The notes under the pieces: generated by a model | What the model was told of the DNA's origin: nothing | What the model saw: only the letters and a program-made list of their open reading frames with translations | The model's database searches: none | From: Opitutales bacterium | Lineage (GTDB): Bacteria > Verrucomicrobiota > Verrucomicrobiia > Opitutales > PNEW01 | Length of the DNA: 64,000 nucleotides | Reading direction: 5' to 3' | Assembly (NCBI GenBank): GCA_965197745.1 | Contig: CBDANS010000007.1 | Span: forward strand, 544,001 to 608,000 | Shown: piece by piece, positions 39,923 through 46,059 of the stretch | How the letters are laid out: the number at the start of each line of letters is the position of its first letter | Numbering within the stretch: the first letter of the stretch is position 1 | Translations under genes and position numbers: made by a program

Positions 39923-41293
39923 TCATATTATTTTATAAATCCCATAGACACCGATGAGAACAATGACGATAGCGCTGGTCCAGAATGCGGTATCATAAAA
40001 TTTGCTGGGTTTTAGCTGTTCCGAAAGTCTCTTATAACGGAAATGGAACGCGGCGAAGACCACGAGCAGAAGAATAATCGAAGTAGAGACTCCACCGATC
40101 ATGACCATCAGGACCGGTAGTTTTATAAAAAGAAAGAGAAGGGACCAGATTATGGGAAATACCCATGCAAGGATGGCGATGGTCCGCATGCGTATTCTCG
40201 GGTCATAAAAATTAATTAAACCCATTTGACCGAGGGTGTCAGAGAAAACGCGGGTCCATGCCGCGAGGCCCGCAAAAAGCGTCGAGTATAAAACGACAAA
40301 GGCCCCAAGCAAATAAATGGCTTTAGCCTCAGCACCCAAGGTTTTAGTATACATTTCGGAGAGTATTTCAACCATAGCGTATCCCTGGGGAATATTGCTT
40401 TGGGCATGTAAGACGGCGGCACCAAGGAGGTAAAAAGCGGCGGTGACTAAAGTGTAGACCAACATGGCGAGAAGTGCATCGATATACATAACTTTAATCC
40501 AACCCTTCGCTCTATTCGTCCATTCCACTGTATTTTTACGAGGTCCAGTGTAAGTCGCATACCCTTTTTCTATGCACCAATAGTTGTAATACATGATCTC
40601 ATCTCCGCCCACGCCAGTGATACCAAAAGCCGCGATGGCGAAAACAACAGCTTCTGGAGGGAGTTTAAATTGAAGACCTTCAAGGATATTTACCCACGAA
40701 ATCGCGAAGGGAGTATATTGAAGATAGGCCAGCGAGATAAAAGTGAATATCGTAAAAAAGCCGATCATGATGATAGAAAATTTTTCTACGAATTGGTAGT
40801 ACCCGCGAAATACTAACAGTGATACAGAGAAAGCCACTATCCAGGTCCAGAGAGAGACGCTGATCTGATCAAAGGCTATATTCAATGTCAGCGCTACACC
40901 TCCAACGATACCGCCAACCTGCAGAAGCTTAAATATCATCAAAAACAACCACGTGCATATTGACCAGCTTACGACACCCAGTTTTGGTCCGGGCAGCTTG
41001 TTGAGCGATGCCATCGTCGATTCACCGGTATTTATAGCATGCTTACCGAATTCAAGCTGAAGCGCTACTTTTACAAAACAACTGACGAGGATTACCCAGA
41101 AAGTAACAAATCCAGCTCTGGCACCCAGCGTAGTGGTGGCTATCAATTCACCGGATCCTACAATTCCTGCTGATAAAATAAATCCCGGCCCAAGGTATTT
41201 AATCGTTTCCCGCAGAGACTGGGGAGGGTCCTTGACTGTCGAATCAGATATAAGATAGGGATTGGGGTTTTCCCCCACTGGATTCTTGTTCAT
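39923..41293 (-). CDS. Nramp/MntH-superfamily transporter
   Basis: LGPGFILSAGIVGSGEL, FGITGVG, and many transmembrane segments. Confidence 0.85.
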   Translation of the reverse strand: MNKNPVGENPNPYLISDSTVKDPPQSLRETIKYLGPGFILSAGIVGSGELIATTTLGARAGFVTFWVILVSCFVKVALQLEFGKHAINTGESTMASLNKLPGPKLGVVSWSICTWLFLMIFKLLQVGGIVGGVALTLNIAFDQISVSLWTWIVAFSVSLLVFRGYYQFVEKFSIIMIGFFTIFTFISLAYLQYTPFAISWVNILEGLQFKLPPEAVVFAIAAFGITGVGGDEIMYYNYWCIEKGYATYTGPRKNTVEWTNRAKGWIKVMYIDALLAMLVYTLVTAAFYLLGAAVLHAQSNIPQGYAMVEILSEMYTKTLGAEAKAIYLLGAFVVLYSTLFAGLAAWTRVFSDTLGQMGLINFYDPRIRMRTIAILAWVFPIIWSLLFLFIKLPVLMVMIGGVSTSIILLLVVFAAFHFRYKRLSEQLKPSKFYDTAFWTSAIVIVLIGVYGIYKII

Positions 41294-41357
41294 GCAAGCC
41301 TATGATTTCCAATACAAGGCAGTACAGAAAGTTTCTGAGTTAAAGGTGGTGCGAGAA

Positions 41358-41449
41358 AATCTTCGTCTTCGTCTGCCTCTTCGTCACTGAAGTAATTAAT
41401 AAATATGTATGTTACAATTTTTTAGAATTAGATAAAGATGAAGATTTAA
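41358..41449. repeat. Copy of the dispersed AATCTTCGTC repeat with a degenerate inverted partner
   Basis: AATCTTCGTCTTCGTCTGCCTCTTCGTC from 41358, and AAAGATGAAGATT near 41434-41446. Confidence 0.7.
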
Positions 41450-41475
41450 TGCTTATAGATGACGGTATTGGGCAG

Positions 41476-41898
41476 TTAATTATCGACCGGCTCTCTAAGT
41501 GAAAACCAGGGTTCCTCACTGCTCACATCCACCAGCGCCGGTCCGGTGAATATTGCCGGACTGAGAATGGCAAGAAAGACGAGCGCACTATTGCTCGTAT
41601 TATAGGTGCCGTGGACTTTATTGACGGGTATGTGCGCCATCTCACCGGCGCCCAGGATCCGATGATCACGCTCAACCCACTGCTCCGCCTCGCCTTCTAA
41701 AACGTAAATAATTTCTTCCATCGCGGGATGGCGATGAAACGCATGAGCCTTGCCTGGCGGCATATGAACGCGTACGAGAAGCAATCCTTCTGCTTCAGTC
41801 AACCCTGGCCGACACATCCAATGATGAGGGCCCCAGGGCAATTGCTCGACTTGAATATCGTTATTGGAGACAAATCGAAGCAACTGTTCTTTGCTCAT
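41476..41898 (-). CDS. Cupin domain protein
   Basis: HAFHRHP..EEIIYVLEG and HIP....H. The start is taken at MSKEQ (41898). Confidence 0.88.
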   Translation of the reverse strand: MSKEQLLRFVSNNDIQVEQLPWGPHHWMCRPGLTEAEGLLLVRVHMPPGKAHAFHRHPAMEEIIYVLEGEAEQWVERDHRILGAGEMAHIPVNKVHGTYNTSNSALVFLAILSPAIFTGPALVDVSSEEPWFSLREPVDN

Positions 41899-41991
41899 AG
41901 CGGCAGCATATCCCCCTCGACCTTGCAATTGATCGAAGCCGTCCCATCAAGACAGGCGATGGTCTATGCCCTATTCTGAAGAATCTATAAT

Positions 41992-42189
41992 CTACTCAGA
42001 TGCTGAAAAATCTCTATCTTTTACGGTTTTACGGCGGTCTTTGCGTGCATTCTCGATAGCCTGATCGCAGAGGCCTTTCACGATATCAGATAGCGCTGAT
42101 GCCGCGCTTGCGGATGTATTCATTGACGCTTTTTCGCGAACATATTTTTTAAGCTTCGATATGACTACCAATATATCAGAATTACTCAT
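41992..42189 (-). CDS. Bacterial histone-fold protein (Bd0055-like)
   Basis: ILVVISKLKKYVREKASMNTSAS....LS......C..AIENA..D.RKTVKDRDF, a single histone fold with the RKTV..RD signature. A GGAG ribosome-binding site lies upstream. Confidence 0.88.
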   Translation of the reverse strand: MSNSDILVVISKLKKYVREKASMNTSASAASALSDIVKGLCDQAIENARKDRRKTVKDRDFSASE

Positions 42190-42756
42190 GTTTTATCTCC
42201 AATTTTTATTTATTTTATGGATGATTAGGGTTAACTTAATCGTTAATATTATGGCAATAGTATTTTATTGCTCTCTAATTCAATCCCTAGGGGTTTCTCT
42301 GCTTTCAGTCAACCTTTGAGCAAAAATAATTATTCACCTCACTTTTATTCATTTTTGTGAATTTCTCACTTGGTTTAGAATTTATAGATCACCACGTATG
42401 CCCAATGTTCATCGTGAAGGTTACTTATTTTTTGATTCGATGCTGGTTCATGAATGGTATTATTAATAATATTTTTCCTCAAGTTTCTCCCCATGATCTT
42501 TACTGAAGAATATTCCGTTCATATTTTATTGATTCAGAAATATCAATAAATAGTGTCTTTGCTTTATATAAAATTGGGTCATTTACCCAGGGGAAAGGTG
42601 TTTTAAAAGCTTTATTGCTTGATATTAGCGAAAAATCTCTGATAAATTATTATCGTTACGTCCCGAAAGCTAGATTACTATCCCAATCGGCTGTTTAAAG
42701 TACCTGAAGATTTCACGTTTAAAAGAGGTGAAAACAGTCCCATTTTCTGGCTATAA

Positions 42757-45700
42757 ATGAGATTAGATAAAAGATATTTTAAGTTTCTTATACGTGCATT
42801 AACTTTGTTTGCACTATGCTGCTGTTTATCGCCAAAACTTCGGGCGCAAGTATTTGACTGGAACCTCAATGGCAATGGCAACTGGAGTGTGGCCGGCAAC
42901 TGGACACCGGGTGGAGGTCCCCCCAACGCCATCGGTGACACCGCCAACTTTGGAACCGTTAGTACCGGCAACAACCGTAATGTCACGGTAGACATTAATG
43001 TCGTGGTCGGGCAGATGGATTTCTTTCACGACACGAATAACAAAGAATACAATATCATTGGCACCAACACCATCACCTTTGATGTGAGCAGCGGCAATGC
43101 CTCGCTCACTGTGGACATGCAGGACAAGAGCAGAATATTAGCCCCTATAGCCCTCAATGACGACCTCGATTATTTTAACGCCAACACACAGAACTTCCGT
43201 ATCCAGGGAAACATCTCGGGTACGGGGGGAATCACCCACCAGGGAGGACAACTGACTTTTGAAAACGGAGGCACCAATACCTACAGCGGAGACACCGTTG
43301 TCGAAGACGGGACCCTGTCTTTAGATAGAAGCAGTGTCAATGGAGCGATTGACTCAGATCTTACTATAGGTGACGGAGTGGGAGCAGCGGGCAGTGCCAT
43401 TGTCGAATACGCCAATCGCAATGATCAGATCTCTGACACCAGCGCGGTCACGATACTGTCGGATGGACTGCTCGATCTCACCAATGAGGACGAAACGATC
43501 GGGTCGCTCTCCAGTTCGAGCACGGCTGCAGAAGTGCAGTTGGGGACTTCACCACAAGGAACGCTTACCGTGGGCGATGCTACGAATGCGACATTTGACG
43601 GTGTCATTTCGGAGAGTGGCGATATTGTCAAGCAGGGCGACGGGACCTGGACTTTAACCAATAATAACACCTATGACGGGACCACGACGATCAACAATGG
43701 TGTCCTCGAAATCGAAGACGCCAGTGCCCTCGGCGATACCACCAGCGACACAACGGTCAACAGTGGTGGCACCTTAGCCCTCGATACGGGAATCACGGTT
43801 ACAGGAGAAGGCCTCACTTTAAACGGCACCGGAGAGGCTGGCACTGCGGGAGCCTTACAGAACATTTCCGGCACCAACGAATGGCAGGGAGCCGTCGACT
43901 TGGGATCGACTGCCACTATCATTTCACTAGCTGGCAGCATAGATATCAGTGGTGACATTGACAATCAGACATTTGATATTACTGTAGACGGCGCTGGAAA
44001 CACGACTTTCAGTGGTGTTGTATCCGATTCGGGTGATCTGATCAAAGACGGTGCGGGCACGCTCACCATATCAGGCATCAATACCTACACCGGTTCCACT
44101 ACAATTAATAATGGTACTGTAAGTATCAGCGCAGACAGTGGTTTAGGGACAGCGCCAGGAGCGGCAACTCCCGGCCATCTCACCTTTGACGGAGGTACCC
44201 TAAATACAAGTGCCACCTTCTCTCTGGACAGTAATCGGGGAATCACCTTAAATGCAGGAAACGGCACGATCGATACGGATTTTGGAGCGACGTTGACCTA
44301 TGGGGGAATCATTGCCGGGACCGGAGATTTAACTAAGGACGGAACGGGCACGCTCACGCTTTCAGGGGTCAACACTTACACCGGATCGACGACCATCGAT
44401 GGGGGCACCTTAAGCATCAGCGCCGACAGTGGTTTAGGGACAGCCCCCGGAGCGGCCACCCCCGGCCACCTTACCTTTGACGGAGGCACGCTTAATACCA
44501 CTGCTACCTTCACTTTAGACAGCAACCGTGGAATCGCCTTAAACGCGGGCGGCGGAACAATTGAAACCGATGCTGCCACGACGTTGACCTACGGGGGAAT
44601 GATGGCCGGCACGGGAAGCTTCGATAAGACCGGTACGGGGACCCTGTCCTGGATGGCGTCAATACTTACACCGGCACGACCACGGTGCAGGCGGGGACCC
44701 TCGAGGTCACCGATCCGAGCGCCCTGGGCGGCACCGGCAGTGGGACCGTGGTCCAGTCCGGAGCGACGCTGGAGGTATCTACCATAGCCGCGAACATGTC
44801 AGCGGAGCCATTGACCATCAATGGCACCGGAGTGGGCGGCGTAGGCGCGCTGTATTGGACCGATGTAGGATTTGATGAATGGACCGGAGACATCAACCCT
44901 CGGCTCCAATGCCACGATCACTAATGCTGCGGGAGGGATCATGCCCATCAGTGGGAATATTGATCTGAACGGAAGCACGCTGACCGTTGATACCGGTGAT
45001 TTAGCCGGGATGGTTTCAGGTTCAGTGATCAGTGGAACAGGTAATTTTGTAAAAGATGGCACGAGCACCTGGTTTGTCCAGGGAGGGACTAATACCTACA
45101 CCGGATCAACGACCATTAACGACGGGACCATGAATCTGAACGTAGCCGGTGGATCCTCTGTTCCCGGAGCCCTGGTCATTGGTGACGGCGTGGGGGCAAC
45201 CGGATCAGCCATTGCCTTTGTCGGCAGCAGCGAACAGATCGCTGACACCTTGGCAGCGACCATCGATTCTGACGGACGCCTCGACGTAAACAGTTTCAGT
45301 GAAACGATCGGTTCCTTAAGCAGCGGCAGTGCCACGGCCCAGGTCTTCCTCGATGCGGGGACCCTGACCGTAGGAGATGCCACGAGCACCACTTTTGCGG
45401 GCGTAATCTCGGAGACCGGAGACCTTGTGAAAGAGGGCACGGGCACCTTGACCTTAACCGGCACGAACAGTTTCAGCGGAGACACCACGGTCAATGCGGG
45501 AACCCTGGAACTGAACAACGGAGCGGGCAATGCCCTCGACGGCACGGCAACAGTGATCATCACCGGGGGCAGTTTGCTCTTAAGTGGTGATGACCAGGTC
45601 GTGGACACCGCGAACATGGAATTGGATGGAGGGATCTTTGACAGCGACGGTTTCGATGAAGTGTTGGGAACGCTTACCCTGTCCTCGGACTCGTCAATCG

Positions 45701-46059
45701 ATTTAGGCACCGGAACAAGCATTATAGACTTTGACGACAGCAGCGGGTTGGAACTGGCGTGGACGGACTCGGGACAGATACTGTCAATACTGGACTACAC
45801 CGGTGACACCAACGGGGGAGGCATCGACCAGATTATATTTGGATCGGCGGGGTTGACCGACTCGCAGTTAGCGCAGATAAGGTTCGTCAATCCGTGGGGA
45901 ACGAGTAAGACCTTTCACGCGCGTTTTCAAGGGGACGAGATCGTTCCTGTCCCCGAAACCTCGACTTACCTCTACGGTGGCTTGATCCTAACCCTCATCG
46001 GTTGGCGTGAACGCCACCGCTTGTCTGGTTGGATAAAAAAAATTCAGACTCGAAGGTAG
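42757..46059 (+). pseudogene. Autotransporter-associated beta-strand repeat surface protein with a PEP-CTERM-like tail, broken by two compensating frameshifts (or sequence errors)
   Basis: Signal peptide, repeated [21 protein letters not shown] and the tail [24 protein letters not shown]. The repeat pattern moves to another frame at about 44647 and returns at about 44895. Confidence 0.8.
44047..44628 (+). repeat. Intragenic tandem duplication, 2 x 291 bp (97 aa)
   Basis: SISADSGLGTAPGAATPGHLTFDGGTLNT occurs twice, with units starting at 44047 and 44338. Confidence 0.9.

Follow-up and report, generated by a model that had tools for sequence, protein, structure and literature searches.

Our analysis indicates that a short minus-strand gene of an Opitutales bacterium encodes a singlet histone of the HBb/Bd0055 type, that is, an alpha3-truncated histone of the "bacterial dimer" class, as judged from its sequence and its modelled structure. 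The explanation that we consider best, with a probability of roughly 0.85, is that this single-fold histone forms a dimer which would bend and compact DNA as a nucleoid protein. The gene lies in a stretch of 64,000 nucleotides, called here the window, for which an initial annotation had already proposed a Bd0055-type histone, and the sequence, the predicted fold, the predicted dimer and the diagnostic residues agree on this identity.

41992..42189, minus strand: coding sequence of the putative HBb-type singlet histone, 65 aa, stop codon included
42197..42200, minus strand: Shine-Dalgarno sequence GGAG, at 7 nt from the ATG, part of AATTGGAGA and identical in 4/4 orthologues

The minus-strand ORF 41992..42189 opens with an ATG and its product has 65 residues. 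Its description as a basic protein was borne out (13 lysines and arginines against 9 aspartates and glutamates, pI 9.52), both of the peptides that had been quoted, LVVISKLKKYVREKASMNTS and DRRKTVKDRDF, occur in the translation, and the ribosome-binding site that had been claimed can be recognised in the GGAG at 42197-42200. Using a word-indexed protein search, we found 70 of 71 candidate homologues at E<=1e-3, and a profile built on 66 homologues from that search (profile A1), run against a set of 1.84 billion, matched 540 cluster representatives at E<=1e-10 and, at the looser limit of E<=1e-3, 1264. Compared with three orthologues from the same GTDB family, the gene has a dN/dS of ~0.09 (dN ~0.11, with a saturated dS of 1.2-1.3) and is under strong purifying selection. 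It is present in one copy in the genome, and the segment 41300-42873 is carried without any difference by contigs of four sequencing runs from four studies, one of which may be the window's own source. These observations establish the ORF as a real, constrained gene whose match to its homologues goes far beyond chance.

With so short an ORF, in a phylum where histones are seldom found, one might suspect a false gene call, a contaminating contig or a very recent transfer; the chance of this is close to nil. In addition to the dN/dS of 0.09, the locus is syntenic and sits on a large contig of a seven-contig genome, its flanking proteins are ~80-95% identical to those of an Opitutales record, the GC content of the gene is typical (42.4% vs 44.6% for the window), and a histone is present in all four genomes of the family. 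Selection, synteny, GC content and family-wide presence thus refute this reading. The closest named records among the best 80 loci listed are a chromosome labelled "MAG: Opitutales bacterium" (82%) and "Verrucomicrobia bacterium Opi.OSU.00C" (85%). The gene order of the window, TPR-ADH-histone-cupin-transporter-cyclase-RraA, is found again in the Opitutales record (locus L002), and a second relative (L031) has the same order from ADH to the cyclase, where its locus ends. With these nearest records and the conserved gene order, the verrucomicrobial origin proposed for the contig holds. The expectation that so short a gene would easily be missed by annotation did not: the exact protein is already in a public protein collection, on four contigs, so gene callers did not miss it.

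Predicted fold and dimer, and diagnostic residues

In a phmmer search of the PDB, the best matches are the HBb/Bd0055 chains 8CMP_A (E 5.9e-12) and 8FVX_A (E 7.2e-12), over 58 residues. Counted by hand on this alignment, 27 of the 58 residues are identical (~47%), and Foldseek gives 44-47%. Weaker sequence matches were obtained with HLp (9QT0, E 5.7e-6), HTkC (9F2C, E 0.022), HmvA and archaeal histones. The AlphaFold2 model, which was built on A1, has a pLDDT of 89.0 and predicts a helix-loop-helix-loop-helix arrangement around a long central alpha2, as in the histone fold.

Residues 10-21: predicted alpha1 (AlphaFold2 model)
Residues 29-50: predicted alpha2, 22 residues (AlphaFold2 model)
Residues 58-60: predicted alpha3, a one-turn helix (AlphaFold2 model)

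An alpha3 of 3-4 residues and an alpha2 shorter than that of nucleosomal histones are characteristic of bacterial dimers (Schwab et al., 2024; Hu et al., 2024; both papers are cited for structure and function from excerpts of their texts), and both features appear in the model. The initial annotation had suggested an HMM or structure search against histone folds. In the Foldseek search of the PDB, the top entries are all HBb structures (9EZZ, with TM 0.89/0.95 and rmsd 1.0 A, then 8FVX, 9F0E and 8CMP), followed by HLp and HTkC (TM 0.80/0.92) and then by HMfB and other archaeal and eukaryotic core histones; the top 49 matches listed are all histones or histone-fold proteins, five of them at E<=1e-3. 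The score against Pfam CBFD_NFYB_HMF (PF00808) is 17.4 bits, under the cut-off of 21.4, and that against NCBIfam archaea_histone (NF043032) is 23.9 bits, under the cut-off of 50. These two libraries therefore give the protein no family name; they cover its subgroup poorly, and sub-cut-off scores accordingly say little on the fold.

The likeness to HBb of Bdellovibrio bacteriovorus (8CMP, 8FVX, 8FW7, 9EZZ, 9F0E) extends from the ~60-aa single fold with its short alpha2 and one-turn alpha3 to individual residues, the S-K motif, the RKTV loop and the D-R-D clamp among them. According to the phmmer alignment, a residue of the window protein carries the number of its HBb counterpart plus two. Ten residues of HBb are described as contacting DNA, T8, S9, K10, K12, T23, S24, A25, K52, T53 and R57 (excerpts of Hu et al., 2024), and nine of them are identical here (S9, K10, K12, T23, S24, A25, K52, T53 and R57); the one that is changed is T8, replaced by I10. 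The clamp D49-R51-D58 of the same description is kept at all three positions, and in the dimer core (V11, L31, I35, L38, I59) L31 and L38 are identical while V11, I35 and I59 are conservatively replaced by L, V and F. The start of alpha1 bears the S-K pair and the alpha1 lysines that distinguish this class (Schwab et al., 2024; Hocher et al., 2023; Hu et al., 2024, all in excerpts), with S11, K12 and K14 invariant and K15 present, and the RKT(V) sequence of loop 2 and the R-D clamp are found as R53-K54-T55-V56 and D60. Across the 66 homologues of profile A1, S11, K12, K14, R53, T55, R59 and D60 are invariant.

The two proteins also differ. The host is a member of the Opitutales, not of the Bdellovibrionota, and HBb is without the near-invariant LCDQAIENA...KDRDF pattern that marks the window protein as part of a distinct and very conserved subgroup spanning several phyla. 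We know of no member of this subgroup that has been studied.

The protein is predicted to form a homodimer. The dimer score was 0.62, as compared to 0.00 for the best of three controls, on a scale where 20 of 30 solved one-chain pairs, but also 1 of 23 single chains, attain the mark we used. The prediction runs had at least 98% of their contacts in common, with a partner pLDDT of at least 80, and the predicted contacts (37-37, 33-40, and 23-26 with 54-57) describe a histone handshake, in which the alpha2 helices are antiparallel and loops L1 and L2 are paired. HBb dimers have already been solved, so this result may reflect memory of those structures and is to be taken as likeness only.

HLp of Leptospira perolatii (9QT0-2) and HTkC, which come next after HBb by sequence as well as by fold, share with the window protein the truncated alpha3, the short alpha2 and the RD clamp. 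They represent the face-to-face histones, which form a stable tetramer wrapping ~60 bp of DNA, and one could ask whether the window protein is another of these. We consider this very improbable. The sequence match to HLp is much weaker, the E-value of HBb being a million-fold better, and the HLp tetramer interface (R49, S52, N53, R55, T61 and F63 in the published description) is kept at two of six positions, R55 and F63; this mapping, taken from the PDB phmmer alignment, assumes that chain numbering equals native numbering plus two, an offset that we deduced. The tetramer-building R49 and N53, which are conserved in that group, are N47 and D51 here, and R55, the only one of the three tetramerisation residues R49, N53 and R55 that is kept, corresponds to R53, the clamp arginine. 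Moreover, D51 is the equivalent of the HBb-type D49, which augments the RD clamp (excerpts of Hu et al., 2024). As far as the excerpts of Schwab et al. (2024) go, bacterial dimers are defined through sequence clustering and by the absence of precisely these R and N residues. Since HLp R49 and N53 are not kept, the protein falls into the bacterial-dimer class rather than among face-to-face histones; its best PDB matches also place it with HBb (E 6e-12 vs 5.7e-6 for HLp), and its orthologue stands in the singlet alignment of Hocher et al. (2023).

Archaeal HMfB and HPhA, and the Pfam family CBFD_NFYB_HMF, resemble the window protein in having a histone fold (Foldseek probability 0.97-0.99), an RKT loop and an RD clamp. 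They are set apart by the shorter alpha2 of the window protein (22 residues in the model), its truncated alpha3, a TM of ~0.6 and the Pfam score below cut-off. DUF1931, the family of the pseudodimeric histones of the Aq_328 type, matches the protein weakly along a single fold, at E 0.038 and under the cut-off, through positions 1-53 of its 138-position profile; in those proteins two folds are fused over ~138 positions, whereas the 65-aa protein has one.

Proposed modes of DNA binding

Based on what has been described for HBb, we propose the following mechanism. Two copies would pair head-to-tail through their antiparallel alpha2 helices, and each end of the dimer would present an L1-L2 site for DNA, to which one chain would contribute T25, S26 and A27 and its partner K54, T55 and R59, with K14 in support. 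The N-terminal turns of the paired alpha1 helices (S11, K12) would offer a further site. These sites would touch the DNA along its phosphate backbone, across the minor groove and irrespective of sequence, and the dimer would bend the DNA and, by bending it, compact it. The histone would in this way act as a nucleoid-associated protein beside the two HU/IHF-family proteins (PF00216) that the genome encodes, a co-occurrence known from the host of HBb as well. DNA binding, bending, the lack of sequence specificity and a high abundance are all expected here by homology with HBb.

An HBb-type dimer could also bind DNA end-on and coat it as a straight nucleoprotein filament, without bending, which we consider unlikely although by no means negligible. 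The first HBb-DNA co-crystal suggested long filaments without bending or wrapping (excerpts of Schwab et al., 2024), in one crystal form the binding mode is as in 8FW7 (excerpts of Hu et al., 2024), and the residues of this interface (K14, T25, S26, A27, K54, T55, R59) are all kept in the window protein. However, in its excerpts, Hu et al. (2024) describe a second HBb interface formed by T8, S9 and K10, report crystal structures together with biophysical and biochemical assays that support compaction by bending, and name molecular dynamics simulations as further support for the bending model. In agreement with a second interface, S11 and K12 are invariant in the 66 homologues. From sequence, the bending and the filament mode are inseparable.

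Neighbouring genes and upstream region

41476..41928, minus strand: Cupin_2 gene (Pfam Cupin_2, 5.7e-17), directly downstream of the histone gene on the same strand
42190..42756, between genes: AT-rich intergenic region, 567 bp, 31.2% GC vs 44.6% for the window
42306..42322, minus strand: 17-nt block TGCTCAAAGGTTGACTG, invariant in four orthologous loci, with a -35-like TTGACT, ~115 nt upstream of the ATG
42254..42271, minus strand: inverted repeat GCAATA-N6-TATTGC, downstream of the conserved block and upstream of the ribosome-binding site, its pairs kept in four loci

Within the family, the cupin gene begins 63-93 nt downstream of the histone gene, and this adjacency is kept in both relatives (L002 and L031). 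In the window, no terminator-like site was found between the two genes (41929-41991). The kept adjacency and the lack of such a site make co-transcription of histone and cupin genes possible. When the ORFs of the best 80 loci and of the window were clustered, no partner gene was found to be conserved across phyla: the clusters that span several phyla consist of the histone ORF and its antisense frame, and all other clusters reflect lineage-specific synteny. Two genes downstream of the histone gene (39923-41293, minus strand), a protein of 456 aa is 74-88% identical in the relatives; it matches no Pfam family at E<=0.001 and, from its sequence, looks like a multi-pass membrane protein.

These neighbours bear on whether the protein might be a histone-fold protein with a specialised, low-abundance role, e.g. 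in local regulation, and not a nucleoid protein of general function. The genome already has its two HU/IHF genes, the order with the cupin gene is kept within the family, and not every prokaryotic histone-fold protein need organise the genome globally (excerpts of Schwab et al., 2024). Nevertheless, no neighbour is conserved across phyla, whereas the residues that contact the DNA backbone are invariant over many phyla, and the ribosome-binding site is strong and conserved. In addition, HBb stands beside HU and IHF in Bdellovibrio, at a similar absolute expression level (excerpts of Schwab et al., 2024). We therefore regard a specialised role as improbable and keep to the nucleoid protein as the better reading.

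Upstream, the initial annotation had described a long AT-rich region shared with a divergent surface-protein gene. This is correct for the window, where a gene with PATR repeats (autotransporter-type) starts at 42757 on the plus strand, but the sharing is specific to this genome. Neither of the two relatives (L002, L031) has the PATR gene at this place, and the upstream neighbour in both is an alcohol dehydrogenase gene, so that the sharing of the region is peculiar to the window genome. The long AT-rich region itself is ancestral; the corresponding region of L002 is 748 bp long at 31% GC. Sequence conservation among the orthologues is confined to the proximal ~135 nt. The 17-nt block TGCTCAAAGGTTGACTG occurs in one exact copy in the genome, with no copy at one or two mismatches, and is a candidate promoter element. 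It is absent upstream of the second histone paralogue of the family (paralogue b, see below), which has its own, different conserved block. A promoter scan returned two promoter-like sites vs 4.1 expected.

The inverted repeat differs in one of the four loci, L083, by one change, which affects both arms. It may act as an operator or fold into a hairpin of the 5'-UTR, a weak suggestion drawn from four sequences with a positive, i.e. unfavourable, covariation term. The consensus fold of the 5' region of the four orthologues has an energy of -11.5 kcal/mol with a covariation contribution of +1.94, which leaves a structured leader without support, and an Rfam scan of 41300-42900 at E<=1 gave no match.

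The PATR-repeat gene on the other side of the region (42757-46059, plus strand) is split into three ORFs, 42757-44787, 44685-44924 and 44872-46059, in frames 1, 0 and 1. In contigs from other runs, a G is added behind position 44645 (X1) and a base is missing at 44895 (X1 and X3). These differences are exactly the two frame shifts, so the three ORFs are probably one gene of ~1100 aa, and the two indels of the window would be due to errors of assembly or to strain variation. Some of the differing contigs may come from paralogues, since PATR repeats recur. The gene is either an insertion specific to the window genome or was lost in the two relatives (L002:3253-4000, and L031).

Distribution, probable history and significance

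Using profile A1, we found the histone in all four genomes of the GTDB family, the other three having two copies each. In a sample of the order, 6 of 401 Opitutales genomes match, namely the four of this family, one with a double-fold protein of 121 aa and one with a weak match; in a sample of the phylum, 2 of 401 genomes match, the window genome and one weak match. The weak matches, G007 (E 5.7e-4, in a 258-aa frame) and G403 (E 4.8e-4), were left out of the histone count. No other strong singlet match was found among the 401 sampled Opitutales genomes and the 401 sampled genomes of the phylum, a distribution which applies to the genomes searched.

For the phylogeny, we used 75 rows over 67 columns: the window, two rows from genome G003 and 72 of the best 80 loci among at least 550 genome hits. 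Eight loci (L035, L043, L044, L051, L053, L066, L069 and L076) gave no clean ORF by pattern and are not in the tree, and Bd0055 itself is represented by stand-in Bdellovibrionales records. The seven histones of the family form one clade (97/91), divided into a subclade a, which includes the window protein (100/87), and a subclade b (100/94). Many other forks are unsettled at 67 columns, and there is no settled sister for the clade of this Opitutales family. A second verrucomicrobial lineage, the Verrucomicrobia record SZAS-1 (L045), has a 64-aa histone of this kind, which lies elsewhere in the tree, together with those of an uncultured bacterium and of a Pseudomonadota record (95/92). Its position outside the Opitutales clade suggests a separate origin.

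The family histones are thus supported as two paralogues, of which the window genome retains a, b having been lost. The place where synteny puts b lies outside the window (G000:C4:92885-93006, L095), and 122 bp remain there vs 451 bp, gene included, in a relative; the flanks are intact and 82-84% identical to those of the relative, and no remnant of a histone was found in the 122 bp. The orthologue of the window gene in Opi.OSU.00C (PNEW01000051.1-7) is 85% identical, of the same length, syntenic and in the same subclade a; that genome differs in that it also has paralogue b (68 aa). Within this one small family of the Opitutales, inheritance is vertical. From the patchy distribution we consider that the family ancestor probably gained the histone by horizontal transfer, and the simplest history would be one old acquisition in that ancestor, followed by a duplication and by the loss of b in the window lineage.

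The searches also returned histones of other architectures. A genome of the same order (G117, 8.3 Mb) has a 121-aa ORF (L089:1294-1659, minus strand) with GRQTVRPSDI in one half and GRETVRAHDF in the other, which reads as a double-fold histone of another type than that of the window. Three cluster representatives (P0071, P0072 and P0078) join two HBb-type folds covalently in tandem, with SKLK...RKTVMxRDF present in both halves. In a Bdellovibrionales record (L066:2293-2781), the histone fold is fused to a cysteine-rich N-terminal extension, which we take to be of the ZZ type in Schwab's description.

The initial annotation did not judge whether such a gene is already known in the lineage. This can be answered: Table S1 of Hocher et al. 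(2023) and the alignment file include both histones of Opi.OSU.00C, one of them the 85% orthologue. Among the "Verrucomicrob" records listed (the first 32 of 89 occurrences, two of them in Table S1), Opi.OSU.00C is the only genome with histone-fold entries. Neither Hocher et al. (2023) nor Schwab et al. (2024) has the string "Verrucomicrob" in its main text, and it is likewise absent from three supplements of the latter, although Verrucomicrobiota may yet appear in its Supplementary Figs 6 and 8. A full-text literature search joining HBb histones with "Verrucomicrobi" gave nothing relevant, as judged from titles and the beginnings of abstracts. Several relatives of the gene already bear the label "histone H3/H4" at JGI. 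To our knowledge, bacterial histones have been characterised only from 2023 onward and few have been studied, namely HBb, HLp and the L. interrogans protein.

The HBb-type histones are a known and structurally characterised family, and the window gene is not new in kind. Our results add a well-supported HBb-type member in Verrucomicrobiota, and their value is phyletic: the histone is fixed in one small family, where it exists as two paralogues with a clean loss of one of them in the genome described here, and it belongs to a cross-phylum subgroup that is much more conserved than HBb itself. How such histones work is understood no differently as a result. Heterodimers are known for archaeal and eukaryotic histones and, by analogy, a and b may form them too. 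A fuller scenario combines a single acquisition, paralogues a and b with upstream elements of their own, possible heterodimers, a reversion to a alone and a role as major chromatin protein; we put it forward tentatively, with the odds leaning against it. If it were true, a verrucomicrobium that is not a predator would use this histone as a major component of its chromatin, and the family would offer a comparison of bacterial chromatin built with one histone and with two.
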